A stretch of 64,000 bases of DNA from an uncultured Clostridia bacterium (GCA_963558245.1 CAUWGA010000001.1:14284-78283); one strand, 5' to 3'. Numbered from the stretch's first letter, positions 1,843-60,272 are shown. The notes: generated from the letters alone by a model not told the origin. Made by a program: numbers and translations.

Positions 1843-3939
1843 TTATTCTTCATCTTTAATTATACTTTTGCTTCCTAAATATGTTGCTAAGAAATATAGT
1901 CCATAAACTACTCCAATTATTACTACTGTAGCTATTACAGATGGTAATAATTCTTTTGTAGTTGCTAACCCTGACATCATAGTCATAACAAATTGTATTC
2001 CAAAAATTGAATGTATTATTGCAAGTACTAATGGCAACATAAAGAATATTGCAATCTGTCTAAATAATGCCTTATTTATTGTTTTTTCATCACAACCTAT
2101 TTTTCTTAATATAAGATATCTTTGTTTATTATCTGAACTTTCAGTTAATTGTTTTAGTGCTAGTATTGCAGCACTTGCAATTAAAAATACAATTCCTAAA
2201 TAAATAGCTATAAATATTACAATTGTTGACACTCCTAAACTTGCTTCTATAATTGTTATTTTTGTCATTCCATTTATAGGAATTCCCTTTTTTTCTATTT
2301 CTGTTGCTAATCCAGATTCTTTATCTACTAATTCCTTATCAAGTTCTCTTTTTTCTTCTTCTGTTTCTGCATTATAATTTGCTGATAATATATATTGTTC
2401 TTTCCATTCTTCTTTTAATTCACAACTATCTGGAACAATGATAATTCCTGTATTCATGTGGCTTGTTGACATCATTATATAGCCTTCTTTACATTCATTA
2501 TATTTAGAATGATATTCTTTTCCATTTAGCACTATACTAATTCCTGATTTTAGAGCTTGATTTCTAACTTGTATCATATTATCATAATCAGCAAGTACAA
2601 CAAATTCATCTTCATTTAGGCTATGTTCTTCTAGTCCATACATCCTTGCAAATTTGTTATAATCTGAAACTTTAATAAGTGTTTCAGGGGTATCATATTG
2701 TAACATTGAATATTGTGCCTTTACATTTTCAAATTGATTTCCTAGGCTATCTTTCCACGTCCATTCATTAGTCGCATATATTGGCATTTCCACAATGTCT
2801 TTTAATTTATTCATATCATATCCAGCATTTTTTAATGTATAGCTTACAGGATATTTTGAATCTTCTCTTGCCTCTTGAGTTGGTGTTATTTCAGAGCCAT
2901 ATGTTTCATATTTTAAATAACTTTCAGGTAAATTAGCTGTTTTATATAAATTCACATCAACAGGTGTCATTTCTTTTAAGTCTTTTTGCATTGTATTTCT
3001 TAGTGATAAACTTGAAGATAATATACTTATAGTCATAAATAACATTAAACATATTACACTCATGCTAATTACAGTTGTATTTATTTTGTTGTTTAGCTGT
3101 CTTAGTACAAACATATTAGTTCCTTTTAAGTATATGTTCTTTCTTGTTTGTACTACTTTTAAGACAAATCCTGATAATGACCAAAATATTGCAATTGTTC
3201 CTACAATTCCCATAACTATTATTGGTAATAGTTTATCTGCTGTGCTAAGTGATTCTACTCCACCTGTTACTTTCCAATAACTATATCCCAATATTCCTGC
3301 ACCTGCTAAAAATACTAATATTGAAAGAACAGGGTTTTTAATTTTTACTGTTTCATTCTTCTTTATTGCTGTTAATAAATTTATTAGTTTATATCTTGAA
3401 ATCGTAATTGTATTAAATATCATAACCGCAATGTACATTATTGCAAAATATAGGCACGTTTTTATACATGCATCTTTTGAAAATACAAACTGGAATTTTG
3501 TCATATCTGCTTCAAATAATTTACCTACCAAAATAGACATAAACTGAGAAGCAAACACTCCTATTATAACCCCTGTAATTAACGATAAAACTCCTATTAA
3601 TATTGTTTCTATTAATATAATCTTAGAAATTTGTCTTTTTCCCATTCCAAGTGTCATATAAATTCCGAATTCTTTTTTTCTTCTATTAATTAAAAAATTA
3701 TTTGCATATACAATTAATAGTCCTAAAATCACAGCTACAAATACTGATACATATCCAAGCATTGAAATCATTAATCGTATTAATTCTCTAGTAGATGCTG
3801 ATACTTCTAACATTGCTTGTTGACTATCTAGTGAGTTAAACATATAAAATATTGCAACACCTAATACCAATGTTAGAAAATAAATTGCATAATCTTTAAA
3901 ACTTTTTTTCATATTTTTTACTGATAATTTAAATAACAT
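1843..3939 (-). CDS. BceB-type FtsX-family ABC transporter permease (10 TM, large extracellular domain)
   Basis: 698 aa; FtsX-like permease topology with a roughly 200-aa extracytoplasmic loop; immediately downstream of and overlapping the ABC ATPase; family fits bacitracin/lantibiotic-type peptide resistance. Confidence 0.85.
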   Translation of the reverse strand: MLFKLSVKNMKKSFKDYAIYFLTLVLGVAIFYMFNSLDSQQAMLEVSASTRELIRLMISMLGYVSVFVAVILGLLIVYANNFLINRRKKEFGIYMTLGMGKRQISKIILIETILIGVLSLITGVIIGVFASQFMSILVGKLFEADMTKFQFVFSKDACIKTCLYFAIMYIAVMIFNTITISRYKLINLLTAIKKNETVKIKNPVLSILVFLAGAGILGYSYWKVTGGVESLSTADKLLPIIVMGIVGTIAIFWSLSGFVLKVVQTRKNIYLKGTNMFVLRQLNNKINTTVISMSVICLMLFMTISILSSSLSLRNTMQKDLKEMTPVDVNLYKTANLPESYLKYETYGSEITPTQEAREDSKYPVSYTLKNAGYDMNKLKDIVEMPIYATNEWTWKDSLGNQFENVKAQYSMLQYDTPETLIKVSDYNKFARMYGLEEHSLNEDEFVVLADYDNMIQVRNQALKSGISIVLNGKEYHSKYNECKEGYIMMSTSHMNTGIIIVPDSCELKEEWKEQYILSANYNAETEEEKRELDKELVDKESGLATEIEKKGIPINGMTKITIIEASLGVSTIVIFIAIYLGIVFLIASAAILALKQLTESSDNKQRYLILRKIGCDEKTINKALFRQIAIFFMLPLVLAIIHSIFGIQFVMTMMSGLATTKELLPSVIATVVIIGVVYGLYFLATYLGSKSIIKDEE

Positions 3940-4696
3940 CGTTCAAATCACCTCCAAGAAGTGTTTGCACCTCTATTATTTTTTCAAAAAATTGTTTTCT
4001 TGTATCATTTCCTTTATTTAATTCATTAAAAATTTTACCGTCTTTTATAAATAAAATTCTATTAGCATAACTTGCAGTAAAAGCATCATGAGTTACCATT
4101 AATATAGTTGCATTAAGTTTATTATTTAAAGTTTCAAATGTTTCCAATAATTGCCTTGCTGATTTACTATCTAATGCTCCTGTTGGTTCATCAGCTAATA
4201 CTAATTTTGGATTAGTTATAATAGCTCTTGCAGATGCACATCTTTGTTTTTGCCCCCCTGATATCTGATATGGATATTTATTTAATATTTCTGCTATATT
4301 TAATTTTTGGGCAATTTCTTTTACTCTACTATCTATTTCTTTCGGTTTTGCTTTTTGTATAGTTAATGCTAATGCTATATTTTCATATACTGTTAAAGTG
4401 TCTAATAAATTGAAATCTTGGAATATAAATCCTAATTCCTCCCTTCTAAATTTATTTAATTTGTTTCCTTTTAGTTTTGTGATATTTTCTCCATTTATTA
4501 TTATATTTCCTGATGTAACTTTGTCTATAGTTGAAATGCAATTTAATAATGTCGTCTTTCCGCTTCCACTAGCTCCCATTATCCCAACAAATTCTCCTTC
4601 ATTTACATCCAAACTAATATTATCTATGGCTTTAGTTAAATTAGATTTATTCCCATAGTACTTTTCAATTTGTTTTACCTCTAAAATTTTTCCCAT
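3929..4696 (-). CDS. BceA-type ABC transporter ATP-binding protein
   Basis: Walker A GASGSGKTT, ABC signature LSGGQKQR, Walker B LVLADEP; likely true start MGKILEVK at 4696 with a GGTGGA RBS (ORF track extends to 4774). Confidence 0.9.
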   Translation of the reverse strand: MGKILEVKQIEKYYGNKSNLTKAIDNISLDVNEGEFVGIMGASGSGKTTLLNCISTIDKVTSGNIIINGENITKLKGNKLNKFRREELGFIFQDFNLLDTLTVYENIALALTIQKAKPKEIDSRVKEIAQKLNIAEILNKYPYQISGGQKQRCASARAIITNPKLVLADEPTGALDSKSARQLLETFETLNNKLNATILMVTHDAFTASYANRILFIKDGKIFNELNKGNDTRKQFFEKIIEVQTLLGGDLNDVI

Positions 4697-4774
4697 TTTT
4701 CCACCATTCCTTCCTTGTTTGTTATACCTATTATAAAATCTTTTTAACTTATCTTCCATCGATTTTTCTTTCAA

Positions 4775-4885: not shown

Positions 4886-5905
4886 TTATTTTCTTAAATT
4901 GTAACTATTTTGTGGGAATACTAGCCTTATTTGGGTTCCAATATTTTCTTGTGAATTTAGTTCAATTGCAATATTTAGTTTATTACATAATTTCTTACAT
5001 AAATATAACCCTATTCCTGTTGATTTCTTTCCTAAAATTCGTCCATTACTTCCAGTGAAACCTTTTTCAAATACTCTTGTTATTTCTCCTTGTTTAATTC
5101 CTATTCCATTGTCTTTAATTATTAAAATTGTATTTTCTTTTTTCTCAATTGCATATATTTCAATTTCTAATACTTTATTATGATTTTTATATTTTATACT
5201 ATTTTGTACTAATTGGTTTAATATAAATCGTATCCATTTACTATCAGTAGCTACTTCATAATCAATATCATGTGTATTAATTACAACTTTATTATGTATT
5301 AATTCATTTTTATTTTTCTTTATTACATCATTTACAATTGGTTTTAATTTACTTCTTTTTATCACATAGTCTTTTTCTACCGCATTACTTCTTGCGTAAA
5401 ATAATGCTTGTTCTATATAATTTTCTATTTTATCTAATTCTTCATCAATACTTTTGGTTGCTTCATTTTTATTATTTTCTATAATCATCTTACTTGCTGC
5501 AATAGGGATTTTTATTTCGTGAATCCATAATTCTATATATTCTTTGTAATCTTCTTGTCTATATTTATATTCATTTACATGTTCTATCATATCTTTATCT
5601 GTTTGAATTAATATATCTCTCAAGATTTTAGCATCTATAAAGTTTTCCTTTGGCATAACTTCCGCAATTAAATATTTTTTATCTAATTCTTCTAATAGTT
5701 CTAGTGTTTTATTGTAAAACTTCTTTCTTTTTATGTAATCAATACATAGTCCAATAGAATATGTAGTTATTAATATAAGTGGTATATAAATTTGCATAAA
5801 TAAACTTGTAGGATATACTAATAAAAATATCTCGATAGTAATTATTGCAAAAAACACCAGCATTATAGTTATAAAATTGTCTTTTAAATATCTTTTAAAG
5901 TTCAT
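4886..5905 (-). CDS. BceS-type intramembrane-sensing histidine kinase
   Basis: 339 aa; two N-terminal TM helices with no extracellular sensor domain; HisKA H-box (EIKIPIA) and HATPase_c G-boxes (IKDNGIGI, GIGLYLC). Confidence 0.85.
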   Translation of the reverse strand: MNFKRYLKDNFITIMLVFFAIITIEIFLLVYPTSLFMQIYIPLILITTYSIGLCIDYIKRKKFYNKTLELLEELDKKYLIAEVMPKENFIDAKILRDILIQTDKDMIEHVNEYKYRQEDYKEYIELWIHEIKIPIAASKMIIENNKNEATKSIDEELDKIENYIEQALFYARSNAVEKDYVIKRSKLKPIVNDVIKKNKNELIHNKVVINTHDIDYEVATDSKWIRFILNQLVQNSIKYKNHNKVLEIEIYAIEKKENTILIIKDNGIGIKQGEITRVFEKGFTGSNGRILGKKSTGIGLYLCKKLCNKLNIAIELNSQENIGTQIRLVFPQNSYNLRK

Positions 5906-5918
5906 TATTTTACACCCT

Positions 5919-6593
5919 TTATCCTTTTAACATATACCCTTGTCCTCTTTTAGTTTCAATTAAATCTTTACATCCTATTTTATCTAATTTGTTTTTCAAT
6001 CTTGTCATATTAACAGTTAATGTATTATCATCGATAAATTCTTCGCTATCCCATAGATATTGCATTATTTCGTCTCTTGAAATTATTTTTCCTCTATTTT
6101 GAACCAAATAATGTATTATTTTTAATTCATTTTTTGTTAGGCTAATGTGTTCATTATCCTTTTCTATAACACTTTGTGAAACATTTAAAATAAATTCGTC
6201 ACAGTTAATTTTATCTAGGTTTACACCAACTTTACTAGACCTTCTTAATACAGATGATATTTTCGCTAATAATATATGAATATTAAATGGTTTTGTAACA
6301 TAATGATCTGCTCCGTAATTCATGCTAATTAATTCGTCCATTTCATTATCTCTACTTGTTATTATAATAATTGGCACTTCTGAAACTTTTCGGATCTCTT
6401 TTAATATATATTCACCATCGTAGTTTGGCAAATTAATATCTAATAAAATTAAATCAGCATGAAAGTCTAAAATTTCTTGAATAGTATTATTAAAAGTTTC
6501 TAATATATATGATTTATACCCGTTTTTATCCAAAAAAACTTTTAGCTCATTTCTTAGCTTTACTTCATCTTCTACTATTAATATTTTTTTCAT
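5919..6593 (-). CDS. OmpR-family response regulator (BceR-like)
   Basis: receiver domain (MKKILIVEDE, DLILLDINLP) plus winged-helix Trans_reg_C (LTKNELKIIHYL, RGQGYML); start taken at MKKIL (6593) with a GAGGTG RBS; the ORF track's first Met is at 6629. Confidence 0.9.
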   Translation of the reverse strand: MKKILIVEDEVKLRNELKVFLDKNGYKSYILETFNNTIQEILDFHADLILLDINLPNYDGEYILKEIRKVSEVPIIIITSRDNEMDELISMNYGADHYVTKPFNIHILLAKISSVLRRSSKVGVNLDKINCDEFILNVSQSVIEKDNEHISLTKNELKIIHYLVQNRGKIISRDEIMQYLWDSEEFIDDNTLTVNMTRLKNKLDKIGCKDLIETKRGQGYMLKG

Positions 6594-6634
6594 TTTACAC
6601 CTCTTTGCTGATTTAATTATTAAAAACAAATTTT

Positions 6635-9211
6635 CTATAATTTACGCATTTTTCTATATTTTATAAAACTAAATATTGATACAATAATCATAATTACAAT
6701 TCCTATAGCAATTAAATTTTTGCTACCTGCATATGGCAATTTGCTTTGTATTTGTTGATTTTGTTTATTATTACTTGTATTTACTTTTGAACCTGAATTA
6801 TTACTATTACTTGAATTTGTATTAATACCATTGTTTTTATTATCTTCTATATTTGTATTATTGTTTGTATTAGTATTATTATCATTGTTCGTATTTGTGT
6901 TGTTATTATTAGTATTTGTATTAGTGTTAGTATTGGTATTGGTATTTGTATTGTTGTTACTATTTGTGTTCGTATTGTTATTTGTATTATTTCCATCTGG
7001 ATCTACAGGTGGCTTTACTTCATCTTTTATATCTAACACATTAATTACTTTTACTATTCCATTTCCTTTTTCGTCTTCTCCATAAATTGTATATGTGCCA
7101 TTTTTTGTTATTTCAAGCATCGCAAAGGCTATTTTATCCTCTTTTTGTATATTTAGCTCTGTTCCATCATTTTTAAAATATTCTGTTTCTTTTTCACCAT
7201 TGGCTATTTTTACCGTTTTTATCTGACTTTCTTCATCTCTTACTTCAATAGTTATTATTGCTTTTTTATAATCATCAGAAACTTTTTTGCTTATTTTTAT
7301 TATTGGAGGATTTTTGTCTTCTGGTTCTGGAATTATAATAGTTGTTATATTAAAAGTTTTTATTGCTTTATTTCCTACACTGTCTTTGGTATATACTGTA
7401 TATTCGCCATTCTCACTAATATTTAAAGAAGCTTTAGCTGTATTTTTATCTTTTTGTAATTCTAAATTTTGTCCCTCATTTTCAAAATAATTTATATCTT
7501 TATTTCCTTTAGCAATTTTTATAACACTTATTTCATTAGACATATCTTTTGCTAAAATTGATACTGCAACATTTTTATCATTTATATTTTTTTGTGTGAT
7601 AGTAAGTTCTGGTGAAGTTATATCTTCTGCCGGTTTATTAATATTTGTTATTTCTATTTCTTCTACAATTTTATTTCCACTATCATCTTCTGCATATACA
7701 GTATATGTTCCTATATGTTCTATTTCAAATTTAGTTGTAATTAATTTCCCTAAACTTCCTTGTCCTATTTGTGTTCCATTATTTAAAAAATAGTCTACAT
7801 TTATACTTCCTTCTGCCCATTTAACTTTACTTATGTTAGAATCAGCATCACTTACTGTCACATCAACTTGTTTTAAATTATCTGTATTTTGTTTTATTGT
7901 AATTGTTGGTGGAACATTTATAGTTGGTCCATCAATTCCAATTATCATTTTTGATATCATATAACCATATCCTTGTTCATCTTGTATATATACATTTATT
8001 GTACAATTTTCTGTAATATTATATGTTGCTGTGACTTTTTTTCCAGGAGTTATAGATATATTCTCTCCTTTTTCTTTTATGTCTTTTATGGTTACATTTT
8101 TACCAATTAAAATTTTCATAGTGGTAATATTAGAAATTTCATCTGTTCCTATTATTATTAATTTTTTAGGTTCTTGTTTATCTTGTTCTATTGTAATGTT
8201 CATAGTATTTTCTTTTGCTGTAATTCTTTTTTCTGTCATTTTTTTGTATCCAGCTTCATTTTCTATATAAAATACATATGTATTATCCTCTGGAGCTGTA
8301 TATGTTGTATTTACTTCTTGACTTGGTGTAAATTTTATTTCTTCACCTTTTGTATTAAAATCTTCAAAGTCTGTTATTTCTGATTTTTTTGCTACTTTTA
8401 TTTTTACAATTTTACATAATGAATCTGTTGCTTTTATATTTACTTTTCTTACATCATTTCCTTCTGTTATTTCAACATTTATAGGTGTTCCTTCTTTTGA
8501 TATATAAATTTCTCTACTTACTTTATTTGCTTTGTTATCTTCAACATAAACCTGATATAATCCTGCTTCTGTTAATTTTGTATATTTTATATTAACATTA
8601 TTACTTGGAACAAATTCAATTTCTGTCCCTTCTTTTGAAAAGTCAATTTCGTCATTTATATTATCTTTTTTGGCGATTTTTATTTTAGAAATTATATTGT
8701 TTTTACTTGTTGCTTGTATAGTTAAATATAATGGATTTTGTTCATCTTTAATTAATGTTAAATCTGGCATATCCTCTGGGTCTTTTAATGTTATTCTACT
8801 TAAATATCTATCTCCATTGGCATTTTTACCATATACTGTATAGCTTCCATATTCTTCTAATTCAAAAGATGTTTGAATATTTTTACTTGGTGTTATATTA
8901 AATGTTTTTACATCATTATTATTTCCTTCAAAATAATCAATATTATCTACATCAATATATTTATGTACATATTTCAAATCAGTTATATTATATGTTGTAT
9001 CTGTAGCTGTTACATTTATTTTATTGTTATTTATTTCATCTCTTTTTAGTTTTATGCTCATTGTTGTAGTAGCTGTTCTTATTTGTGATGTAAGCTCATA
9101 TGCCTCTGAAATTGTTGGCATACACAATGGCGTCAAAATTGTTAATATCATAATTACTATAATTATTAATTTTACATTTCTTTTCATTGTTACTCCTCCT
9201 TTTATTGACAT
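6635..9211 (-). CDS. large cell-surface protein with seven tandem beta-sandwich-like repeats, an Asn/Thr low-complexity stalk and a C-terminal LPYAG sorting-signal-like anchor
   Basis: 858 aa; N-terminal signal peptide; seven roughly 85-aa repeats sharing the pattern I.K[IV]K.AKG...DYF...G.E[IL]......K.......I...G.YTVY..D..GN; (N-T)n stalk; C-terminus LPYAGS, then a hydrophobic segment, then KYRKMRKL, as in sortase substrates. Confidence 0.8.
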   Translation of the reverse strand: MSIKGGVTMKRNVKLIIIVIMILTILTPLCMPTISEAYELTSQIRTATTTMSIKLKRDEINNNKINVTATDTTYNITDLKYVHKYIDVDNIDYFEGNNNDVKTFNITPSKNIQTSFELEEYGSYTVYGKNANGDRYLSRITLKDPEDMPDLTLIKDEQNPLYLTIQATSKNNIISKIKIAKKDNINDEIDFSKEGTEIEFVPSNNVNIKYTKLTEAGLYQVYVEDNKANKVSREIYISKEGTPINVEITEGNDVRKVNIKATDSLCKIVKIKVAKKSEITDFEDFNTKGEEIKFTPSQEVNTTYTAPEDNTYVFYIENEAGYKKMTEKRITAKENTMNITIEQDKQEPKKLIIIGTDEISNITTMKILIGKNVTIKDIKEKGENISITPGKKVTATYNITENCTINVYIQDEQGYGYMISKMIIGIDGPTINVPPTITIKQNTDNLKQVDVTVSDADSNISKVKWAEGSINVDYFLNNGTQIGQGSLGKLITTKFEIEHIGTYTVYAEDDSGNKIVEEIEITNINKPAEDITSPELTITQKNINDKNVAVSILAKDMSNEISVIKIAKGNKDINYFENEGQNLELQKDKNTAKASLNISENGEYTVYTKDSVGNKAIKTFNITTIIIPEPEDKNPPIIKISKKVSDDYKKAIITIEVRDEESQIKTVKIANGEKETEYFKNDGTELNIQKEDKIAFAMLEITKNGTYTIYGEDEKGNGIVKVINVLDIKDEVKPPVDPDGNNTNNNTNTNSNNNTNTNTNTNTNTNTNNNNTNTNNDNNTNTNNNTNIEDNKNNGINTNSSNSNNSGSKVNTSNNKQNQQIQSKLPYAGSKNLIAIGIVIMIIVSIFSFIKYRKMRKL
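6835..7000. repeat. imperfect hexanucleotide microsatellite (GTATTA/GTATTG)n encoding the (N-T)n stalk of the surface protein
   Basis: runs such as gtattagtgttagtattggtattggtatttgtattgttgtt; translates on the minus strand to NTNTNTNTNTN. Confidence 0.7.
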
Positions 9212-10042: not shown

Positions 10043-10495
10043 ATGTATAAAAAATTATTAGTAGGATTTACTTTACTTATTGTTTGTGTATTTTCTTTTA
10101 GTTTATGTTTTGCTAATGACGCAAAAACTATGGTTGAAGATGCTTCCAATAGTGTTAAAAATGTAGTTGGCGGTGCTGAAAACGTAGTTAAAAATACAGT
10201 TGAAGATGTTTCAAATGGAGCAAAAAACATGACTCAAAGAGTAGAAAATGGTGCACAAAATACTGCAAATCAAGCTGGAAATGTTATGCAAGGCACAATG
10301 AATGATGGTTATAATGCTACTAGAACAGCTACTGATACAGATGCTGGTGTAGGTGCATCTACATTTATGGGAATGAGTGCAACAGCATGGACTTGGCTAA
10401 TAATGGGAATTGCCGCAGCTGCCATAGTTGCTTTAGTTTGGTATTATGGCTCTCAAGTTCGTTCTTCAAATTATGATGATAATGATAGATTTTAA
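10043..10495 (+). CDS. small secreted/membrane-anchored hypothetical protein with degenerate roughly 11-aa repeats
   Basis: signal peptide (LLIVCVFSFSLCFA); repeats VKNVVGGAENVVKNTVEDVSNGAKN; C-terminal TM helix; AGGAGG RBS. Confidence 0.55.
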   Translation: MYKKLLVGFTLLIVCVFSFSLCFANDAKTMVEDASNSVKNVVGGAENVVKNTVEDVSNGAKNMTQRVENGAQNTANQAGNVMQGTMNDGYNATRTATDTDAGVGASTFMGMSATAWTWLIMGIAAAAIVALVWYYGSQVRSSNYDDNDRF

Positions 10496-13240: not shown

Positions 13241-14812
13241 TTATCTTTTTATAATCGTTACACCTTCTTTTATTGTTTCTAGTACCCTTACATTTCTAAT
13301 GTCATCTATATCTATTTTTAGGGGATTTTTATCTATTATAATCAAATCAGCAAGTTTCCCTTCTTTTATACTCCCTTTGATATCTTCTTCTGAATATTGA
13401 TATGCACTGTTAATAGTAACTGCTTTAATTGCATCTATTACTGATATTTTTTCTTCTTTTCCTAAAATTTTTCCTCCTTTTGTTTTTCTGTTTACTGCAC
13501 ACCATATTGTTTCAAACATATTAGGTTCAATTACTGGTGCATCTTGGTGAAATGTAAATCTTGTATTATTTTTTATTGCACTTCCAGCAGGACTTATTAT
13601 GTTTGCTCTTTCAAGTCCAAAATTTTTAATATGAATATCTCCCCAATGATATATATGAGCTATAAAAAATGATGGAATAATTCCATATTCTTTTACTTCT
13701 TTTAATTGGTCTACACCTAATAGCTGTCCATGTATCAACACTGGTTTAATTTCTTTAATATTTTTAGTTGTATCTTTTATTGCTTTAATATATTGTTCAG
13801 CTGCTTTATCTCCATTACAATGTGCTAATATTTGTAATTTTTCTTCATATGCATATTCTACATCTTTTTTTACTTCTTCATCACTCATAGTTCCATATCC
13901 AAAATACTCTTTGTCGTCTATATATGGTGTTCTCATCCATGCCGTTCTTCCTTGTGGCGAACCGTCTAAGAATATTTTAATTCCACTTATTTTAAAGCGA
14001 TTTTTATATTTTTTAATATTTTCTTTGAAGGCATTCCTTATATCTTTTTCTGTTTTTTTGTCCATATATGCAATTACATCTAAATATAATTTATTGTCTT
14101 CTACTAACTTTTTATATATTGGTATTAATTCTTTGACCATCATTCCTTCTTGTACAGTTGTTATTCCATATGATGCATATTTTTCTTGTGCTTTATCGCA
14201 AAGTTTTACTAAATCTTCTAAACTTGCCATTGGAATTTTCTTTACATTTTCAATAAAAGCATTTTCTTCTAAATATCCAGTTAATACATTGTTTATCTTT
14301 TCTATTTTTCCACCAAATGGCGGTATAGTTTCGTTTGTAATTTGTAAATATTCTAAACCTCTTGAATTTAAAACACCATTATGTCCTGATTTATGATGAA
14401 TTATAACTGGATTATTTTTTATAACTTTATCTATTTCTTCTTTTGTAATATGTCTTTTTTCTGTTAAAGCATTGTTATCGTATCCACTTGCTATAATCCA
14501 TTTTCCATCTTCTATGTTATTTACATTTTTGTATTCATATAACTTATTTTGTATTTCTTCAACAGATTTGCACTCATTTAGAGGAATTTGTAATAAATTA
14601 TTTGCTACTGCAAAAAAATGGCTATGTGCATCTATAAATGCTGGCATCATTGTTTTTCCTTGTAAATCTATTAGTTCAGTTTCATCATCTTTTAGTTCTA
14701 ATATTTCTTTTTCTATTCCTACTTTTTTTATTTTTCCATTTTCAATTAATATTGCTTCAACATTGTTATTTTCTAAAGTTATGAAGTCTCCATTAAAATA
14801 TATTTTTTTCAT
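13241..14812 (-). CDS. amidohydrolase-3 family metal-dependent hydrolase (YtcJ-like)
   Basis: 523 aa; N-terminal IDAHSHF metal-binding motif and a C-terminal amidohydrolase signature. Confidence 0.8.
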   Translation of the reverse strand: MKKIYFNGDFITLENNNVEAILIENGKIKKVGIEKEILELKDDETELIDLQGKTMMPAFIDAHSHFFAVANNLLQIPLNECKSVEEIQNKLYEYKNVNNIEDGKWIIASGYDNNALTEKRHITKEEIDKVIKNNPVIIHHKSGHNGVLNSRGLEYLQITNETIPPFGGKIEKINNVLTGYLEENAFIENVKKIPMASLEDLVKLCDKAQEKYASYGITTVQEGMMVKELIPIYKKLVEDNKLYLDVIAYMDKKTEKDIRNAFKENIKKYKNRFKISGIKIFLDGSPQGRTAWMRTPYIDDKEYFGYGTMSDEEVKKDVEYAYEEKLQILAHCNGDKAAEQYIKAIKDTTKNIKEIKPVLIHGQLLGVDQLKEVKEYGIIPSFFIAHIYHWGDIHIKNFGLERANIISPAGSAIKNNTRFTFHQDAPVIEPNMFETIWCAVNRKTKGGKILGKEEKISVIDAIKAVTINSAYQYSEEDIKGSIKEGKLADLIIIDKNPLKIDIDDIRNVRVLETIKEGVTIIKR

Positions 14813-14914: not shown

Positions 14915-16660
14915 TTATTTTTCTTCATCACCTTGCTTTAGTCTTAAATATCCTAGTTCTTCCCAAACATTATAAGCTAAATTTAATCTAAATACTAATG
15001 TAGGTTTTGCACCTGCTCTGTTTTTATCAATTACACATGCATAATATCTAACATCTGGATTTTTTTCCTTTTTTAAATCAAAAAATTTAGTATCTACTTC
15101 TTCTAAAGAATATTCATAATTTTGTAAAGTATCTCTATGAATTTGTTTCATTAAACTTAGTGTATCTAAAACTTCTTTTACTGTTCTACTAACCGCTAAA
15201 TCATTTACATTTAAGTTAACAGGTAATGTATTGCTTTCTGCTAATTGTAAAGTTGAACAAATAAACATATTAAAATTTTGTGCTAAATTTGAAAGTATTG
15301 TAGCGGTTTTCTTTAGTTCTTCACCAACGCCAATATTTGCTGTATCTGTTTTTAATGTATCATAAAACACATACTCTATTTGCTCTTTATAATAATAATT
15401 CATTATAACTTTTTTTAGTTCATCATTTGTATGGTCTGTAATATTAATAAAATAAATTGAATTTTCAATTTCTTTATTTGCCCAATTTGTTACCTCTATA
15501 GTTTTTTTAAATTCTGTTGATTCTTTTAATAATCTCTTTACAAAGTCTCCTTGTTTTTCGTCTGGATGCTTTATTATAAATCCATCTTCATCTACTTGTG
15601 TTGTTTTTGGATTATCTGCTCTAAATTTAAATTCTAATAATTCTCCTTCCGTCTTTTTTAAATCAGTTTGTCCATGTAATTCTTGAATTGCTTTATTATT
15701 AATTATTGTTGTAATTAAACATAGTTTCATTTTTTCTTCGGACATTTCGTTTGAAATTATTAATACTTTCTTTTTATGGACTAACGCAACATGTGCAGCT
15801 ATATCCATTGTTAATCTACTTTTTCCTGAATTTGATGGCATTGCTATTGCCATTGTTTCTCCTCTTCTTATTCCTTTAAATACTTTTGTCATTATTGGAA
15901 ATGGTAATTCTAATCCATTTCTTAAATTATTATCTCCTAATTCTAGAAAACTTGTAAGGTCTGAATTCAACACAGCTCTTTTAAATTTTTCTGTGTCATT
16001 TACTTGTTGTATTGCGTTTTCTATTTCTTCCACTGACATTCTATCATATAAGATATATTGTGTAATTTCTACAATTTTATCTTGTATGTTTTTTATTGGT
16101 ATCGCTAGGTAACTTTTTCTAAGTACAAACAATTTTTTCAAATTAATATATATTTTTTCCATGTCATAATCATTAGGATTTATTTCTTCTTTTAATTTTG
16201 ATTTAAATATATAACTTTCTTCGTTATCTTTCGCGAAATTAAAATTTGCTTTTGCTTCTTCGGAGCTATATGCTCCTCCTTCTGTAAACAATACACTTTT
16301 ATATGCATTTAATGCATCTGCATCTTCAAAATAGCATTCTTCAAATTTAAAATAAAATTTAACTATTTGTTTTGGATCATTTAAAAGCATTCCTATATAT
16401 ATTCTTTCTAAATTAATGTCACTCAATTGTTTTGGATATATTCCATCTTCTTCTAGCTCTTCATCTTTTTCCATTTCAAATTCTTCTGGTTCTTCTTTTA
16501 AATTACTTAGTTCTTCTATCTTTCTAAATGCTTTTACATAGTCTTCATTTAATAGTTCTCTTCTTATTTCTTCTATTAAATCTTTATTCTTTTCTGTTAC
16601 TGGTATATTGTTTAAAATTTCATATATTTTTTTTATTTTGCTTTCTTCCATATTTACCAA
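14915..16660 (-). CDS. divergent DnaB-family helicase paralog (DnaB_N-like plus RecA-like DnaB_C domain) with an acidic N-terminal extension
   Basis: 581 aa; DnaB_N-like ERIYIGMLLNDPKQI; Walker A IAMPSNSGKSRLTMDIA (compare DnaB AARPSMGKTAF); Walker B-like EYVFYDTLK; C-terminal KNRAGAKPTLVFRLNLAYNVWEEL resembles DnaB KHRNGPTG...F; Glu/Asp-rich N-terminus. Confidence 0.65.
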   Translation of the reverse strand: MVNMEESKIKKIYEILNNIPVTEKNKDLIEEIRRELLNEDYVKAFRKIEELSNLKEEPEEFEMEKDEELEEDGIYPKQLSDINLERIYIGMLLNDPKQIVKFYFKFEECYFEDADALNAYKSVLFTEGGAYSSEEAKANFNFAKDNEESYIFKSKLKEEINPNDYDMEKIYINLKKLFVLRKSYLAIPIKNIQDKIVEITQYILYDRMSVEEIENAIQQVNDTEKFKRAVLNSDLTSFLELGDNNLRNGLELPFPIMTKVFKGIRRGETMAIAMPSNSGKSRLTMDIAAHVALVHKKKVLIISNEMSEEKMKLCLITTIINNKAIQELHGQTDLKKTEGELLEFKFRADNPKTTQVDEDGFIIKHPDEKQGDFVKRLLKESTEFKKTIEVTNWANKEIENSIYFINITDHTNDELKKVIMNYYYKEQIEYVFYDTLKTDTANIGVGEELKKTATILSNLAQNFNMFICSTLQLAESNTLPVNLNVNDLAVSRTVKEVLDTLSLMKQIHRDTLQNYEYSLEEVDTKFFDLKKEKNPDVRYYACVIDKNRAGAKPTLVFRLNLAYNVWEELGYLRLKQGDEEK

Positions 16661-16854
16661 TTCTCCTTTATTTTAAACTATAAGTGTTAATAATATCCTT
16701 TTTTTATTAACTTTACTAGAACTTTTTGTATTTTCATAATATTCTATTTCCACATCAACCTAATTATACACTTAAGATTTTTTTAAGGCAATAGATTTTT
16801 TTCTATTTTTATGTTATTATATTTGTGTAATTTTTTATAGAAAGGAATATATTT

Positions 16855-18558
16855 ATGGCATTTGATGGAATTATAACAAAAGCAATATCCTCTGAACTCC
16901 AACTTTTAAAAGGAGCTAGAATTGACAAAATTTTTCAGCCAGATTCTAATACTATTATTCTAGGAATGTATTTAAATGGTAATAATTATGCACTTAATAT
17001 TTGTACAAATCCTAAATATTATAGAATTCATTTAACTACACATCCTAAATCTAATCCTAAAGTAGCACCTAATTTTTGTATGGTTCTACGAAAACATTTA
17101 ATCGGATTACGCATAAAAAACATTATCACTAATTCTTTAGAAAGACTTGTTATTATTGAATTAGAAGGTTTTGATGATATAGATGATATTATTTCTTCTA
17201 AACTTATTGTTGAACTTATGGGAAAACATTGTAATGTTATTTTATTAAATGATGAAGGAATTATTGTTGATAGTCTAAGGCATATTAATAATGAAAATTC
17301 AACACATATTGTTGTTCCACATATAAAATATACATATCCACATATATCAAAAATTAGTTTTCTGGATATATCAGATTTTACAGAATTTAAAAATATTATT
17401 GGAGATACTGAATTAACACATATTCCTGAAAAAATTAGTAATACTTTTAATGGTATTAGTAAAAATCTAGTTTCTTTTATAATAAGCAATTTATCTCTTA
17501 ATAATTTAGAAGATATTTTTTATTGTTTAAAAAATATTATAAATAAAACTGATTCTTTTGAATTAACATTTAAAGAGCTTTCTAACGATTATTTTTTATT
17601 GCCTACTAATAATTCTTATAGCAATTTTTATTTGAATTTTAAAATTGATGATTTTTATTATTCAAAAGAAAGTAAAGAAGAATTACAAGTAACTAAGAAC
17701 AATGTTTTAAAATTAATTTTACTAACATTGAAAAAATATAAAAAAAGGCTTCAAAATATTGACCAAAAATTAAATGATTGTACTAATATGGACAGTTATA
17801 AATTATTTGGAGAGCTTATTACTTCAAATTTATATAGAATACCTAATAAAAATGTTACTGAAATTACTGTAGAAAACTATTACGATAATAATAATTTATT
17901 ATCAATTCCATTAGATAATAGATATTCTCCTAGTTATAATGCAAAAAGATTTTTTAAAAAATATCATAAATTAAAAAATGCATTGGAAATTATAAGTATT
18001 CAGAAAGAAAAAACAATTCATGAAATAAACTACATTGAAAGTGTAGTCTATGAACTTGAGGCAGCCAATTCAATTTCTGAAATTGCAGAAATTCTTCAAG
18101 AAATATCTGAAAACGAAATATTTCAGGAACAAACCAAAAGTTTATTTAAACCACAAAAAAGTAAAATAAAGAAAAGTAACTTAAGTAAAAATAAAACAGT
18201 TTCTTTTAATCCTTTAAAATATAATATAAACGGTTTTACTCTTTTAGTTGGAAGAAATAATAAAGAAAACGATTATTTAAGTTTGAAATATGCAAATAAA
18301 TCTGATATCTGGTTTCATACAAAAGATATTCACGGTAGCCATGCAATTCTAATTTTAAATAACAAAACTCCTAATGAAGAAATTTTATTAAAATGTGCTG
18401 AAATAACTGCTTACCATAGCAAAGCTCGTCTTTCTTCTAATGTTCCTGTCAATACTTGTGAAGTTAAATTTGTAAAAAAACCAAAAGGAGCAAAACCTGG
18501 TATGGTTATTTACACAAACTACACAACTTTATATGTTAATCCTAAAAACATTAAATAA
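16855..18558 (+). CDS. rqcH: NFACT-family ribosome quality-control protein RqcH (FbpA/YloA-like)
   Basis: 567 aa; NFACT-N (MAFDGIITKAISSEL...RIDKI), coiled-coil middle and NFACT-R C-terminal region. Confidence 0.85.
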   Translation: MAFDGIITKAISSELQLLKGARIDKIFQPDSNTIILGMYLNGNNYALNICTNPKYYRIHLTTHPKSNPKVAPNFCMVLRKHLIGLRIKNIITNSLERLVIIELEGFDDIDDIISSKLIVELMGKHCNVILLNDEGIIVDSLRHINNENSTHIVVPHIKYTYPHISKISFLDISDFTEFKNIIGDTELTHIPEKISNTFNGISKNLVSFIISNLSLNNLEDIFYCLKNIINKTDSFELTFKELSNDYFLLPTNNSYSNFYLNFKIDDFYYSKESKEELQVTKNNVLKLILLTLKKYKKRLQNIDQKLNDCTNMDSYKLFGELITSNLYRIPNKNVTEITVENYYDNNNLLSIPLDNRYSPSYNAKRFFKKYHKLKNALEIISIQKEKTIHEINYIESVVYELEAANSISEIAEILQEISENEIFQEQTKSLFKPQKSKIKKSNLSKNKTVSFNPLKYNINGFTLLVGRNNKENDYLSLKYANKSDIWFHTKDIHGSHAILILNNKTPNEEILLKCAEITAYHSKARLSSNVPVNTCEVKFVKKPKGAKPGMVIYTNYTTLYVNPKNIK

Positions 18559-20090: not shown

Positions 20091-21188
20091 TTATTCTTCG
20101 TCTTCTTGACTTGGTAATTCTTCGCCTAAACTTTGTTCAAATGCTTTTGCAAAATTTTCTCTTACTTTTTCTTCTATATCTTCTAATATTTCTGGATTTT
20201 CACGAAGATATTTTTTTACATTTTCTCTTCCTTGTCCAATTCTTTCTCCATCATAACTAAACCAAGAACCTGCTTTATCCACAATATCTAAATTTACTGC
20301 CATATCTAGTATATTACCTTCTTTTGATATACCTTGTCCATATACTATATCAAATTCAGCTTCTCTAAATGGTGGAGCAACTTTATTTTTTATTACTTTA
20401 ACACGTACTCTATTTCCTTTCACTTCTCCATCTTGTTTTATATTTTCTATTTTTCTGATGTCCATTCTAACTGATGCATAAAATTTTAATGCTCTACCAC
20501 CAGTTGTTGTTTCAGGATTTCCAAACATAACTCCAATTTTTTCCCTTAATTGGTTTATAAATATTAATACTGTTTTTGATTTATTAATTGCTCCTGCTAG
20601 TTTTCTTAAAGCTTGTGACATTAATCTTGCTTGTAATCCCATATGAGAATCTCCCATATCTCCATCTATTTCAGCCTTTGGAACAAGTGCTGCAACAGAG
20701 TCAACTACTATAACATCTAATGCTCCACTTCTAACTAAACTTTCAGTAATTTCTAATGCTTGCTCTCCTGTATCTGGTTGTGAAACAATTAAATTATCAA
20801 TATCTACTCCTAGTTTTTTAGCATATACTGGGTCTAATGCATGCTCTGCATCTATAAAAGCTGCTTCTCCACCCATTTTTTGTGCTTCTGCTACAATATG
20901 TAATGCTAATGTTGTTTTTCCAGAAGATTCTGGTCCAAATACTTCTATAATTCTTCCTCTTGGAACTCCTCCTATACCTAAAGCTATATCTAAGCTTAAA
21001 GCTCCTGTTGGAATAGCTTCTATTTCCATTGCTTTAAACTCTCCAAGTTTCATAACTGAACCTTTACCAAATTGCTTTTCTATTTGACTCATTGCTGCTT
21101 CCAATGCTTTTCTTTTTTCTGCATTTTCTTCCATAATTTCCTCCTTAACTTCTTTGAACTTTTGTTTGCTGATGACATTATATAACAA
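20091..21188 (-). CDS. recA: recombinase RecA
   Basis: 365 aa; [41 protein letters not shown] (Walker A), and L1/L2 loop regions conserved. Confidence 0.97.
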
Positions 21189-27999: not shown

Positions 28000-30900
28000 T
28001 TATTTAACTAATTCTACTTCTATGTCTAAATTTTGACCATTTATGTTTGTTGCTACATAATTGTCTCTTTCTTCATGATATACGATTTTTTCTGCTAAAG
28101 TATCATGTTTAATTAGTTCTTCATTTTCTTTTATAACTCTTTCTAAATCACTATCTCCAGCTACATATAAATTGATATGGTCCAATACTTCAAAGCCTTG
28201 GTCTTTTCTCATGTTTTGTACTTTTGAAAGTACTTCACGAACATATCCTTCTTCTTTTAGTTCTTTTGTTATATTAGTATCTAATACAACCCCCATCTCT
28301 CCTTCTCCACTAAATGCAAAACCATCTTTTCCTTGCATTGTAACCAATAAATTATCTGCATTTAATTCGATTTGTGTGTCACCAATTTCAATATATTCGC
28401 ATTTTCCGTTTTTAACTTTAGTAGCTAATTCCATTTGATTTAGTTTTCCAAGTTCTTCTCTTATTCTAGGTATTAATTTTCCATATTCTTTTCCTAAAAC
28501 TGGTAAATTTGGTTTTATTTCAAAGTCTACATATTTATTCATTTCAGCACCTAGTTTTACTTCTTTTACATTTAATTCTTCTTTTACTATGTCTTCGTAA
28601 TATTTAGGTAATGTATCTACTGAAATAAGCATTTCTGAAAGTGGTTGTCTATTTTTAATATTTGCAGAATTTCTTGCACTTCTACCTAATTTTACAATTT
28701 TATATGCTAAATCCATTTCTTTTTCAAGTTCTTCATTTATTGTGCTTTCATCTACTTCTGGCCATAAGCATAAGTGAACACTTTCAGGTGCATTGTTATC
28801 TAATCCTACTACTAAGTTTTGGTATATTTCGTCTGTCATAAATGGTACAAATGGCGCTGCAACTTTTATTAATGTTGTTAATACTTTGTATAAAGTTACA
28901 TATGCTCCAATTTTATCATCTGTTAGACTTTCTGACCAAAATCTTTCTCTATTTCTACGTACATACCAGTTTGATAGTTCATCTGTGAAACTTTCAATTT
29001 CTAATGCTGCACTTGTTATATCATAACTTTCTAATTTGCTGTCTACTACTTTTATTAGCGTATTTAATTTAGAAATTATCCATTTATCCATAACATTAGT
29101 TAATTCAAAATCTGAATATTTTAATGGATTAAATTGGTCTATTTCTGCATATAAAACATAGAAAGAATATACATTCCATAATGTGCTTAAAAATCCTCTT
29201 TGTGTTTCTTGCACATTTTTAATTCCTAATCGTGTAGGAAGCCATGGCGCACTACAAGTGTAGAAGTGCCAACGCGTTGCATCTGCTCCTACTGTATCTA
29301 ATAATGTCATTGGGTCTACACCATTTTTCTTTGATTTAGACATTTTTTGACCATGTTCATCTAAAACATGTCCTAAAACTATACAATTTTCAAACGGTGT
29401 TTTATTAAATAACGCTGTACCTATAGCTGTTAAAGTATAGAACCATCCTCTAGTTTGGTCTATTGCTTCTGAAATAAATCCTGCTGGGAAGTTATTTTCA
29501 AACATTTCCTTATTTTCAAATGGATAGTGCCATTGTGCAAAAGGCATTGAACCTGAATCAAACCAACAGTCGATAACTTCTTTTGCTCTATGCATTTTCT
29601 TACCACATTTCGGACATTTTAAATGTACGTCATCTATATATGGTTTGTGTAATTCGATATCTTCTGGACAATCAATTGCTTTTTCTTTTAGTTCTTCAAT
29701 AGAGCCTATACATTCTTGATGTCCGCAATTCTCATCCTCACATGTCCATACTGGGAATGGAGTTCCCCAATATCTATCTCTTGAAATTCCCCAGTCAATT
29801 ACATTTTCTAAGAATTTTCCAAATCTACCTGTTTTTATTGTTTCAGGATACCAGTTTACTTTGCTATTATTTTCAACTAATTCATCTCTTAGTTTACTCA
29901 TAGCTACAAACCAACTTTCTTTTGGATAATATAGAAGTGGTGTATCACATCTCCAGCAGTGAGGATAAGAGTGCATGTGCTTTTCTTTGCTAAATAGTTT
30001 ATTTTCTTTAGCTAGCCATTTACATATGTCTTCATTACAGTCTCTTACAAATTTACCTGCCCATGGCTCTACTTCTTTTACAAAGTTTCCTGATTTATCT
30101 ACTAAATTGACAAAAGTAATTCCATTTTGTTTTGCAACTAAGCTATCATCTTCACCATATGCTGGTGCAATATGAACTATACCTGTACCATCTGTTAGTG
30201 TAACATAATCTCCATGGATTACTTCAAATGCTTTTCCTTCAACTTTTGCAAATGGCATTAATTGTTCATATTTAACACCTAATAATTCGCTTCCTTTAAA
30301 TGTTTTTACAACTTCATATGGTGTTTCTTTTAATACCGTTTCTATTAAATCTTTAGCTAAAATATAGTTTTCATATTTAGGCTCATCATCAGTACCTATA
30401 TTTGCTTTAACCTCTGCATATTCATATGATTTATTAACACATAGTGCTAAGTTAGATGGCAAAGTCCATGGTGTAGTTGTCCATGCTAAAATATAAGTAT
30501 TTTCATCAAATTTTGTATTATCAAGTACTTTGAATTTTGCAACACAAGTCAAATCTTTTACATCTTTATAGCCTTGCGCAACTTCGTGTGATGATAACGC
30601 TGTACCACATCTTGGACAATATGGCATAACTTTGTGCCCTTCATATAAAAGTCCTTTATCCCACATTTGTTTTAATGCCCACCATACTGATTCTATATAA
30701 TTGTTATGATAAGTTACATATGGATTTTCCATGTCTACCCAATATCCAACTTTATTAGTCATTTCTTCCCACATGTGCACATAAGTGAACACACTTTCTT
30801 TGCATTTTTTTACAAATTTTTCTACTCCATATTCTTCTATTTGTTCTTTTCCTGATATTCCAAGGCTTTTTTCGATTTCTAATTCTACTGGAAGTCCATG

Positions 30901-31161
30901 TGTATCCCATCCAGCTTTACGAATAACTTTATAACCTTTCATTACTTTATAACGTGGTATAATATCTTTCATTACTCTTGTTTCGATGTGCCCAACATGA
31001 GGTTTACCATTTGCTGTTGGTGGTCCATCATAAAAAGTAAAATACCTTTTACCTTCATTCATATCAAAATTTTTCTTGATTATGTCTTTTTCCTTCCAAT
31101 TTTCCGCAACTCTACGTTCCATTCCTACGAAACCATCTTTAAGTTCAACTTTCTTATACAT
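28000..31161 (-). CDS. ileS: isoleucine--tRNA ligase (type 2, about 1050 aa)
   Basis: 1053 aa; class I signatures [12 protein letters not shown] (HIGH) and KMSKS; CP1 editing domain; C-terminal zinc-binding region. Confidence 0.95.
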
Positions 31162-31596: not shown

Positions 31597-31866
31597 AACA
31601 AAAAATCTTCTCATCCTAATTATTAGGACGAAAAGATTTATATATCTACTCCGCGGTACCACCTAAGTTAACAATATTTATGTTTTCTATTGTTCGCTCC
31701 AAAATCTTTAACGCAGATTTACGACTAACTTACTATGATTTCAGTTTAGTGAAAACTAGGTGATAATAAATAATTTTTACTTACCAAACTTGCACCTCAC
31801 ATTGGCTCTCTTTAAAGTTATTTTATTATTTATCTTGTCCTTGTTATATTCTTTTCTTATTGATTA
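31597..31866 (-). promoter_or_regulatory. T-box riboswitch leader (probable AUC/Ile specifier) with intrinsic terminator, controlling the DUF1653-ileS operon
   Basis: minus-strand UUAGGUGGUACCGCGG T-box sequence (31651-31675 on +), then terminator aaatcttttcgtcctaat/attaggatgagaagatttttt; AGAGAG GA-motif and candidate specifier ...UUAUCACC upstream. Confidence 0.8.
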
Positions 31867-59246: not shown

Positions 59247-60272
59247 CTATATCATTACTTCTTTTTTTATTTTTTGAAGCTCTTGCTCACTAATATTTGT
59301 TGCTCTTTTAATATCAGTATCCTTCATTTTGATATTAATCATTCCTATAACTGCTTGTTTTATTCCTTTTTGCATTCCTCTTTGCATCCCTTTTTCCATT
59401 CCGCTTTTTGTAGCTTTTCTTTCTATTTCTGAAAACTTATCATCTAGTATTTCTTCAAAAAATCTTTCTGCTTTTGTCATTTCAACACCTCCTCTTTCTA
59501 AAACTTTTTTATATCCTTCTATTTCTTCCTGTGTAAATTTTCTTTTTATAAAATTAGAATATGTTAATATTATAATTAGATATTGTTTTTCTTTTTCGGT
59601 TAAACCTCTTTTTAAAAGCTTTGTAAAAATTTCTTTTATTTCTTCTTTAGTCTTTACTTTTTCAAACAACATAGCTTTAGATATTCTTGAATCTTCTTGT
59701 ATTAATTGTTCTTTTTTATACTCATTTACATCTATTAAATTATATCTAGGATATTCTTGTATTGGAAAACCGTACATTTCTGTTTGTTTTTCTGTTATTG
59801 TAAATGCAGAATTCCACTTCTTCGTTCCTGTATATAGTACAATTGGAACTATTAAAGGATACTCATTTTTTATTCCTCTTTTTATATTTCTACTTTCTAT
59901 AATTTCCAAACACATTGTAGTTACTCTTTCTGCCATATTCTTATCTACTGTACTTTGATGTTCAATTAGTATAAATATTTCTTTTTCTTTTATTTTGTAT
60001 AATAAGTCTGCCTCTCTTTTCCTAAATTTTTTAGTTATAAACTCTTTATCATATTTTTCTAAGTCATCTTTTTCAATTTCTTTGCTTTTATCATAACCTA
60101 GATATTTTCTTATTAATAAAAGTATTTCTTCCTCATTGCTAAGTATTTCTTTAAATATTTTATCATGATAATGATAAGTATCCCCATTAATTTTATCATT
60201 ATTTTTCACATTATCATCTTCTATAGGCAACAAATTCTTGTATTTCCAATAATCTTCTGGGGTAAAAATCAT
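59247..60272 (-). CDS. Rpn-family recombination-promoting nuclease / putative transposase (YhgA-like, PD-(D/E)xK)
   Basis: 341 aa; N-terminal HDKIFKEIL, ADLLYK...IFILIEHQS core typical of the Transposase_31/Rpn family; Lys/Glu-rich C-terminal tail. Confidence 0.65.
   Translation of the reverse strand: MIFTPEDYWKYKNLLPIEDDNVKNNDKINGDTYHYHDKIFKEILSNEEEILLLIRKYLGYDKSKEIEKDDLEKYDKEFITKKFRKREADLLYKIKEKEIFILIEHQSTVDKNMAERVTTMCLEIIESRNIKRGIKNEYPLIVPIVLYTGTKKWNSAFTITEKQTEMYGFPIQEYPRYNLIDVNEYKKEQLIQEDSRISKAMLFEKVKTKEEIKEIFTKLLKRGLTEKEKQYLIIILTYSNFIKRKFTQEEIEGYKKVLERGGVEMTKAERFFEEILDDKFSEIERKATKSGMEKGMQRGMQKGIKQAVIGMINIKMKDTDIKRATNISEQELQKIKKEVMI

Follow-up and report, generated by a model that had tools for sequence, protein, structure and literature searches.

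A solitary DnaB-family helicase of probable phage origin in a lineage of uncultured gut Clostridia

Comparison with described helicases

Canonical DnaB (DnaC in Bacillus; TIGR00665; PDB 4esv, 7t22, and 4nmn) combines a two-domain architecture with the motifs H1, H1a, H2, H3, and an arginine finger. The same architecture and motifs were found in a protein encoded on the minus strand of a 64,000-nucleotide stretch of DNA from an uncultured Clostridia bacterium (GCA_963558245.1, CAUWGA010000001.1:14284-78283; hereafter the window), where its open reading frame (ORF) spans 14915-16660. Its identity to canonical DnaB is only 13-16%, its P-loop has a Met, and it carries an additional insertion as well as an N-terminal extension that canonical DnaB lacks; its gene adjoins neither rplI nor any replication gene, unlike that of canonical DnaB. 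The window gene is probably a domesticated replicative helicase of phages.

Gut Caudoviricetes encode helicases of the PHROG 19 type (~495-520 aa) that share 27-37% identity with the window protein over the full core, together with the P-loop, the insertion, and the KNR(F/A)G motif. These phage genes lie in a helicase-primase-Pol III alpha module and are preceded by a small acidic-tailed ORF, whereas the window gene is solitary and chromosomal, and the three-helix unit and charged linker with which its protein begins occur in no phage member. The window protein gave a full-length match to the PHROG 19 profile. A position in a phage module next to a primase or polymerase gene was found neither in the window nor in 80 species. 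The helicases of SPP1 (G40P, PDB 3bgw) and T4 (gp41, 8dtp and 8gao) are full-length structural matches with Foldseek E-values of ~1e-15, so even at this distance from DnaB a phage helicase can function as a replicative hexamer. No close sequence relation between them and the window protein was detectable, and their cognate loaders and primases are encoded nearby, while none are found beside the window gene. RadA/Sms is a DnaB-related recombination helicase with a KNRFG motif. It resembles the window protein as a RecA-fold, DnaB-related ATPase, and phage members of the family carry 'DKNRFG' where the window protein has 'DKNRAG'. However, RadA/Sms has an N-terminal C4 zinc finger and a C-terminal Lon-like domain, both of which are missing from the window protein, where a DnaB-type N-terminal domain is present instead, and no RadA structure was found among the top 50 fold matches. 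A literature search returned nothing on this protein.

Protein family, fold, and active site

The Pfam DnaB_C model (PF03796) was matched with 36.6 bits over a cutoff of 27, the aligned part being the first ~80 profile positions (the Walker A/H1a region), and the PHROG 19 profile 'DnaB-like replicative helicase' was matched by residues 47-570 with an E-value of 9.7e-24. An unrelated P-loop family is excluded. The NCBIfam DnaB equivalog model TIGR00665 scored 27.2 bits, with an alignment beginning at residue 80 of the 581-aa ORF; as its cutoff is 385, the protein is not to be filed as a DnaB equivalog. The Pfam model of the DnaB N-terminal domain (PF00772) was not detected in the window protein. 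Among 25 family members from hosts and phages, PF03796 was matched by 17 and PF00772 by 2. With phmmer, the best match in the PDB reached an E-value of only ~0.2, while hhalign aligned the family profile with E. coli DnaB at 92% probability and an E-value of 7e-7 over 364 columns (E. coli residues 30-413).

An AlphaFold2 monomer model, made from the 25 host and phage sequences, was confident, with a mean pLDDT (predicted local distance difference test score) of 81. The best Foldseek matches of this model in the PDB were full-length DnaB structures with E-values of ~1e-18 over ~500-530 columns at 13-16% identity. They include G. stearothermophilus DnaB with single-stranded DNA, the Aquifex, H. 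pylori, V. cholerae, and E. coli proteins, SPP1 G40P, and T4 gp41. When viral models were searched (BFVD), phage replicative helicases were on top. By these results the window protein is a true DnaB-family helicase with two domains, at a great distance from canonical DnaB. The domains and motifs of its core are located as follows.

15917..16444, minus strand: DnaB-type helical N-terminal domain (globular head, helical hairpin, and linker helix), residues 70-245; AlphaFold2 helices 79-240, Foldseek, hhalign
14918..15916, minus strand: RecA-like ATPase domain (DnaB_C), residues 246-578; Pfam, PHROG, AlphaFold2 (250-572), Foldseek
15815..15841, minus strand: Walker A/H1 variant MPSNSGKSR, invariant in host and phage members
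15467..15694, minus strand: family-specific insertion of ~45 aa (residues ~320-395) between H1a (SNEMS) and Walker B (FYDTLK)
15011..15025, minus strand: arginine-finger motif KNRAG (K543-G547), with K543, R545, and G547 invariant

The N-terminal domain starts with ERIYIGMLLNDPKQI and opens with a DnaB-like 'xxE..(L/I)G..L' helix. The P-loop reads IAMPSNSGKSRL and is atypical in its first residue, which is Met where Gly or Ala is usual. K277 (Walker A), E302 (H1a), D431 (Walker B), Q469 (H3), and R545 (arginine finger) can be aligned with the corresponding motifs of DnaB. Of the motif positions, 16 were checked, and each was invariant in 85 of 85 orthologs and common to the phage members among the 25 sequences. 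The C-terminal KNRAGAKP...NVWEEL is present, and the protein ends ~30 residues past the KNRAG motif. With the P-loop, catalytic Glu, Walker B, sensor Gln, and arginine finger intact, the protein is presumably competent for catalysis.

These results agree with most of an initial annotation of the gene, made from the DNA alone. That annotation had described a 581-aa DnaB-like protein of low identity to canonical helicases, and the three motifs it quoted (ERIYIGMLLNDPKQI, IAMPSNSGKSRL, and the C-terminal one) are all in place. The low identity is borne out by both the structural alignments and the phmmer search. Its proposal of a specialised DnaB-like helicase fits the two-domain protein with intact catalytic motifs that conservation, AlphaFold2/Foldseek, and hhalign describe.

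Relatives and phylogeny

Relatives were searched among 1.84 billion cluster representatives at E <= 1e-3, and 472 were found. The host-type relatives fall into a handful of clusters with 55-65% identity or higher, all of which have the N-terminal extension (P0121-P0124, 601-889 aa). The phage-type relatives are many proteins of ~495-540 aa with 27-37% identity and no extension. They are annotated as 'replicative helicase [Caudoviricetes sp.]' on contigs of ~100-150 kb, where the gene order is Sak4-like/AAA_24, small ORF, helicase, Toprim primase, DHH/RecJ-like, Pol III alpha, RecD2-like helicase, and ligase. In line with this, INPHARED and PLSDB yielded matches in Geobacillus virus E3, Psychrobacillus phage Perkons, large Bacillus plasmids, and the C. 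botulinum plasmid p1. The P-loop pattern M-x-S-N-x-G-K-[ST]-R, the ~45-aa insertion between H1a and Walker B, and KNR(F/A)G are common to the host and phage types.

In a neighbour-joining (distance) tree rooted with E. coli DnaB, the host-type proteins were monophyletic in 200 of 200 bootstraps. Monophyly of the phage-type proteins to the exclusion of the host group was recovered in just 8%, which places the host group inside the phage diversity. Mean identity was 67% among host proteins, 42% among phage proteins, and 29% between the two. By its placement in this tree, the window gene belongs to a phage-type lineage in which a monophyletic host group appears nested among phage helicases.

Distribution, genomic context, and selection

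When one genome per GTDB species was scanned, at least 418 stretches were found to encode a relative, and the best 80 were analysed. These 80 have 64-97% identity, and every one is a species-level metagenome-assembled genome (MAG) of uncultured Clostridia that live in the gut of humans, mice, rabbits, or further hosts. One of the loci (L076) is from the MAG UMGS1663. The genus UMGS1663 has been placed in the uncultured order TANB77, which is without isolates and was grouped with uncultured clades of reduced genome size (PMC11680825). From this placement, the organism of the window probably belongs to TANB77 or a close relative. The two genes that flank the helicase gene are the following.

16855..18558, plus strand: rqcH (NFACT), divergently transcribed from the helicase gene
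13241-14812: amidohydrolase gene

Within ~10 kb of the helicase gene no phage, plasmid, or primase genes were found, and the housekeeping context between amidohydrolase and rqcH that had been described initially is confirmed. Independent assemblies of the window species have the identical order rny-ymdB-spoVS-SBP-recA-recX-scpA-<rqcH-helicase-amidohydrolase-prx-fba-<smpB. Neighbour clustering over the 80 species, all of which have the helicase, showed rqcH as the only widely conserved neighbour (54 of 80). Other recurrent neighbours were a Gly-rich-tailed membrane protein that has a signal peptide, an enzyme of the GH3 type, and, at a distance of 3-4 genes, AddA; further contexts had ArgRS/PFK, RsmB/AdhE, topA, and mutS. 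All contexts examined were housekeeping. In a more distant lineage, the helicase gene lies between sigE and sigG. Primase, polymerase, loader, and phage genes do not accompany the helicase in these contexts. The ratio of nonsynonymous to synonymous substitution rates (dN/dS) was 0.05-0.15 for the helicase, which is below the 0.16-0.27 of rqcH and indicates strong purifying selection. The host-type gene is thus conserved as a solitary, constrained gene across the clade.

N-terminal extension

The extension of the window protein has a length of 69 aa and consists of two parts.

16502..16651, minus strand: N-terminal three-helix unit, residues 1-50, specific to the host type, with the motif KIYEILxxIxVT; AlphaFold2 helices 2-15, 23-34, and 38-50, pLDDT 70-85
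16445..16501, minus strand: disordered acidic linker NLKEEPEEFEMEKDEELEED, residues 51-69; pLDDT ~40, with 53-69 disordered in the AlphaFold2 model

The three-helix unit is of mixed charge and has a mean identity of 51% across orthologs, while the linker is the fastest-evolving part with 26% mean identity and variable length. The whole extension contains 24 Asp or Glu and 12 Lys or Arg residues. The Glu/Asp-rich segment of ~90 aa proposed initially is therefore too long and is not acidic throughout, although residues 51-69 are strongly acidic as described. The extension is found in essentially all orthologs and is absent from the phage members. Its median length in the orthologs is 72 aa. Most close orthologs have about 63-113 aa, apart from two shorter calls that look truncated, and distant members have up to 380 aa. 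In close comparisons its dN/dS was 0.05-0.11, which indicates purifying selection.

In P0123 and P0124, the long extension is built of tandem acidic repeats with 'DDDFLPG' or 'EDFELPM' units, which recall the tip of the single-stranded DNA-binding protein (SSB). P0123 has 889 aa with a 380-aa extension and is encoded at L095 10001-12670, between sigE and sigG (ftsA-ftsZ-spoIIGA-sigE-helicase-sigG). Its units read 'DD(D)[F/G/V]LPG', and the SSB of its own organism ends in DDDLPF. SSB-tip mimicry was rejected for the window protein, as LP-containing acidic repeats occur only in the distant P0123 and P0124. The LP motif has an internal position, has multiplied through duplication, and does not occur in the window protein, so the likeness to the SSB tip is only a lead.

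In the phages, a small ORF lies directly upstream of the helicase gene (L087 9515-9988; L089 9269-9982; L094 443-1360; L102 4853-5554). An acidic amphipathic tail ends this ORF in L087, L089, and L094, the three phage loci analysed more closely (DIDSILDEI, DIEAFLEGY, and NDEFLEELLAGI, respectively), and a Cys-rich, zinc-ribbon-like N-terminal motif was seen in L089, L094, and L102. The upstream ORF is a candidate helicase loader or adaptor, and the acidic tails suggest that the host add-on may supply a similar function in cis.

Origin, role, and alternative explanations

The source of the gene would be the replicative helicase of large gut phages, captured once by an ancestor of the uncultured gut Clostridia lineage that includes the order TANB77 and, since that capture, inherited vertically as a solitary core gene. 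We consider this history probable. The protein would form a hexameric ring that moves 5'->3' on single-stranded DNA, driven by ATP, and would serve as an auxiliary helicase beside a canonical DnaC/DnaB-type helicase. Because no cognate primase, polymerase, or loader gene is nearby, such an auxiliary role in host replication restart or recombination-linked DNA synthesis appears most likely. The N-terminal add-on would be a built-in regulator or adaptor. It may replace, in cis, the small acidic-tailed protein encoded upstream of the phage helicase, and would thereby let the helicase work independently of the phage primase and loader. The retention of a constrained, phage-derived helicase of the replicative type in a streamlined genome points to an important, undescribed role in replication or repair. 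The gene would also be a clean example of a host that adopted a core part of a phage replisome and equipped it with a new tail serving as regulator or adaptor.

Several observations weigh against this account. The distance tree has a very distant outgroup, so the topology that nests the host group in phages is open to long-branch effects. No conserved replication partner gene emerged from neighbour clustering over the 80 species. The PADLOC-DB v2 defence models gave no match at E <= 0.01, and a Cheo box was looked for upstream of the helicase gene and none was found, so that neither defence models nor an SOS signal hints at a pathway. The linker is usually acidic, but it is not net-acidic in ~10 of the 80 species, which makes a strict DNA-mimic role doubtful. 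The upstream ORFs of L087, L089, and L094 belong to no PHROG family, and the BLAST likeness between host extension and phage upstream ORFs is compositional and not significant; a fusion of the phage ORF onto the helicase was set aside on these grounds and is kept as an idea only. Finally, a phmmer search with E. coli DnaB over all ORFs of the window and 85 loci of the same genomic region matched the helicase alone; since all of this sequence is the same small region, the absence of canonical DnaB there says almost nothing.

The last result touches on another explanation, which we regard as unlikely, namely that the protein is the sole replicative (fork) helicase of the clade, having displaced canonical DnaB/DnaC and using its add-on to couple to the host initiator, loader, or primase. 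It is clade-wide and present in a single copy per locus in reduced genomes (P0020 is on a contig of ~1.5 Mb), which agrees with the grouping of TANB77 with uncultured clades of reduced genome size (PMC11680825). All of its motifs are intact, its constraint is as strong as that on core genes, and no canonical DnaB occurred in any of the sequence read from the window and the 85 loci. Yet this sequence covers one small region, and the absence of canonical DnaB there is nearly uninformative, while the chromosomal position of the gene shifts among lineages (rqcH; sigE-sigG; near topA or mutS), and an extension ranging from ~30 to 380 aa is unusual for a core part of the replisome. The DnaG of a related lineage also keeps a recognisable DnaB_bind domain, which lends weak support to the expectation of a canonical DnaB. 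To our knowledge canonical DnaB is universal in bacteria and no lineage lacks it, and it is therefore expected in these genomes as well. If the protein were nonetheless the only fork helicase, the assumption of this universality would be overturned, and the clade would be the first bacterial lineage we know of to run its chromosome on a phage-type DnaB.

Two further explanations were considered. The nearest relatives serve as replicative helicases in gut phages whose guanine plus cytosine (GC) content is similarly low (29-34%), three IMG/VR contigs have a prophage integrated right next to the gene, and the host copy comes with an extra N-terminal module but without the partner genes of the phages. 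These points would suit a host defence directed at phages with a helicase of this family, in which the protein co-assembles or competes with the phage helicase, loader, or primase. We hold such a role to be very unlikely. Mixed hexamers are not expected at ~29% identity to the phage proteins, the surroundings are housekeeping with no defence-island neighbours or PADLOC match, and defence genes tend to evolve fast and to be distributed patchily, whereas this helicase is near-universal in the clade with a dN/dS of 0.05-0.15. The initial annotation had alternatively suggested the remnant of a replication module of an integrated element. The link to such a module stands as far as the origin is concerned, since the phage relatives are encoded in these modules and the host group is nested among phage helicases in the tree that includes E. 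coli DnaB. A decaying remnant of an integrated phage, plasmid, or integrative and conjugative element could likewise explain the phage-type family and the position of ortholog P0122 among conjugation-like genes. Its probability is next to negligible, as the reading frame is intact in at least 80 species at 64-97% identity, the catalytic and other motif residues are invariant, dN/dS is lower than that of rqcH, and GC content is that of the genome. Moreover, no other element genes flank the gene in the window or in most loci, and P0122 nests inside the host clade.

Copies near mobile elements

Four IMG/VR contigs labelled as viral have a host-type copy with 57-65% identity. Viral copies of the host type were rejected for three of these (L098-L100), which are prophages integrated directly beside the host gene; the fourth, L101, is a contig of 8.3 kb. 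In L098-L100, which are from a related species, integrase, ImmA-like, XRE, and Xis-like genes of these prophages lie directly downstream of the helicase gene, which is at the contig edge; the prophages differ in gene content. This arrangement suggests an integration hotspot at the 3' side of the helicase gene. P0122 (L097; 691 aa with a 183-aa extension) is encoded among conjugation-like genes, with a VirB4/TraG-like ATPase, a 1108-aa lysozyme/NlpC-P60 protein, and DUF3846 as neighbours. As P0122 nests inside the host clade, these neighbours may be part of an element that inserted next to the host gene.

Gene start and local signals

The ORF of the helicase is real and gives 581 aa if read from the TTG at 16660, as in the initial annotation. 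However, this TTG is only 2 nt after the ribosome-binding site AAGGAG, while the ATG at 16651 is separated by 11 nt from the GGAG core upstream of it, and every public gene call begins at this ATG (P0001, MEESK..., 578 aa). The ATG at 16651 is thus the likely start, giving a protein of 578 aa.

14915..16651, minus strand: helicase coding sequence, 578 aa; stop codon at 14915-14917, with the ORF running on to the TTG at 16660
16663..16668, minus strand: ribosome-binding site AAGGAG, serving the ATG at 16651
16763..16791, minus strand: promoter-like site of the sigma-A type, TTGCCT-17 nt-TATAAT, the best of the region with 10/12 positions matching

No terminator-like site was found downstream of the helicase gene on its strand, so read-through into the amidohydrolase gene is possible. 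The GC content was 25.3% for the helicase gene and 26.3% for the window. A Cheo/LexA-like box (GAACTTTTGTTT, one mismatch) occurs at 21156-21167, just upstream of the recA ATG at 21134, while window-wide counts of Cheo boxes equal the chance expectation. The 10 kb beyond the right end of the window contained only housekeeping and sporulation genes and no canonical DnaB. The sequence covered from the genome amounts to about 64-84 kb, and canonical DnaB does not occur in it.

Other features of the window

A T-box leader was located at 31621-31856 on the minus strand, upstream of ileS (28000-31161) and unusually far (~460 nt) from its ATG. It scored 92.5 bits against an Rfam gathering score of 93, and a default Rfam run therefore reported nothing for the whole window. 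An 858-aa ORF at 6635-9211 (minus strand) has no Pfam or PADLOC match and lies directly upstream of the following genes.

5919-6629, 4886-5905, 3929-4774, and 1843-3939, same strand as the 858-aa ORF: response regulator, histidine kinase, and ABC/FtsX-type transporter genes

The ORF and the genes downstream of it could form a module for sensing and export of the Bce-like kind, in which the ORF would be a large component of unknown type. A Transposase_31 (PF04754) gene at 59247-60272 (minus strand) is situated between accD/accA-like genes and a DUF4912/GH57 pair, and its length and Pfam detectability vary among strains. In a 150-aa protein encoded at 10043-10495 (plus strand), a signal peptide and degenerate 'NVVKNTVEDVSNGAKN'-type repeats are combined with a membrane helix at the C-terminus. 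The protein belongs to no Pfam family and is conserved beside smpB in many species of the clade.

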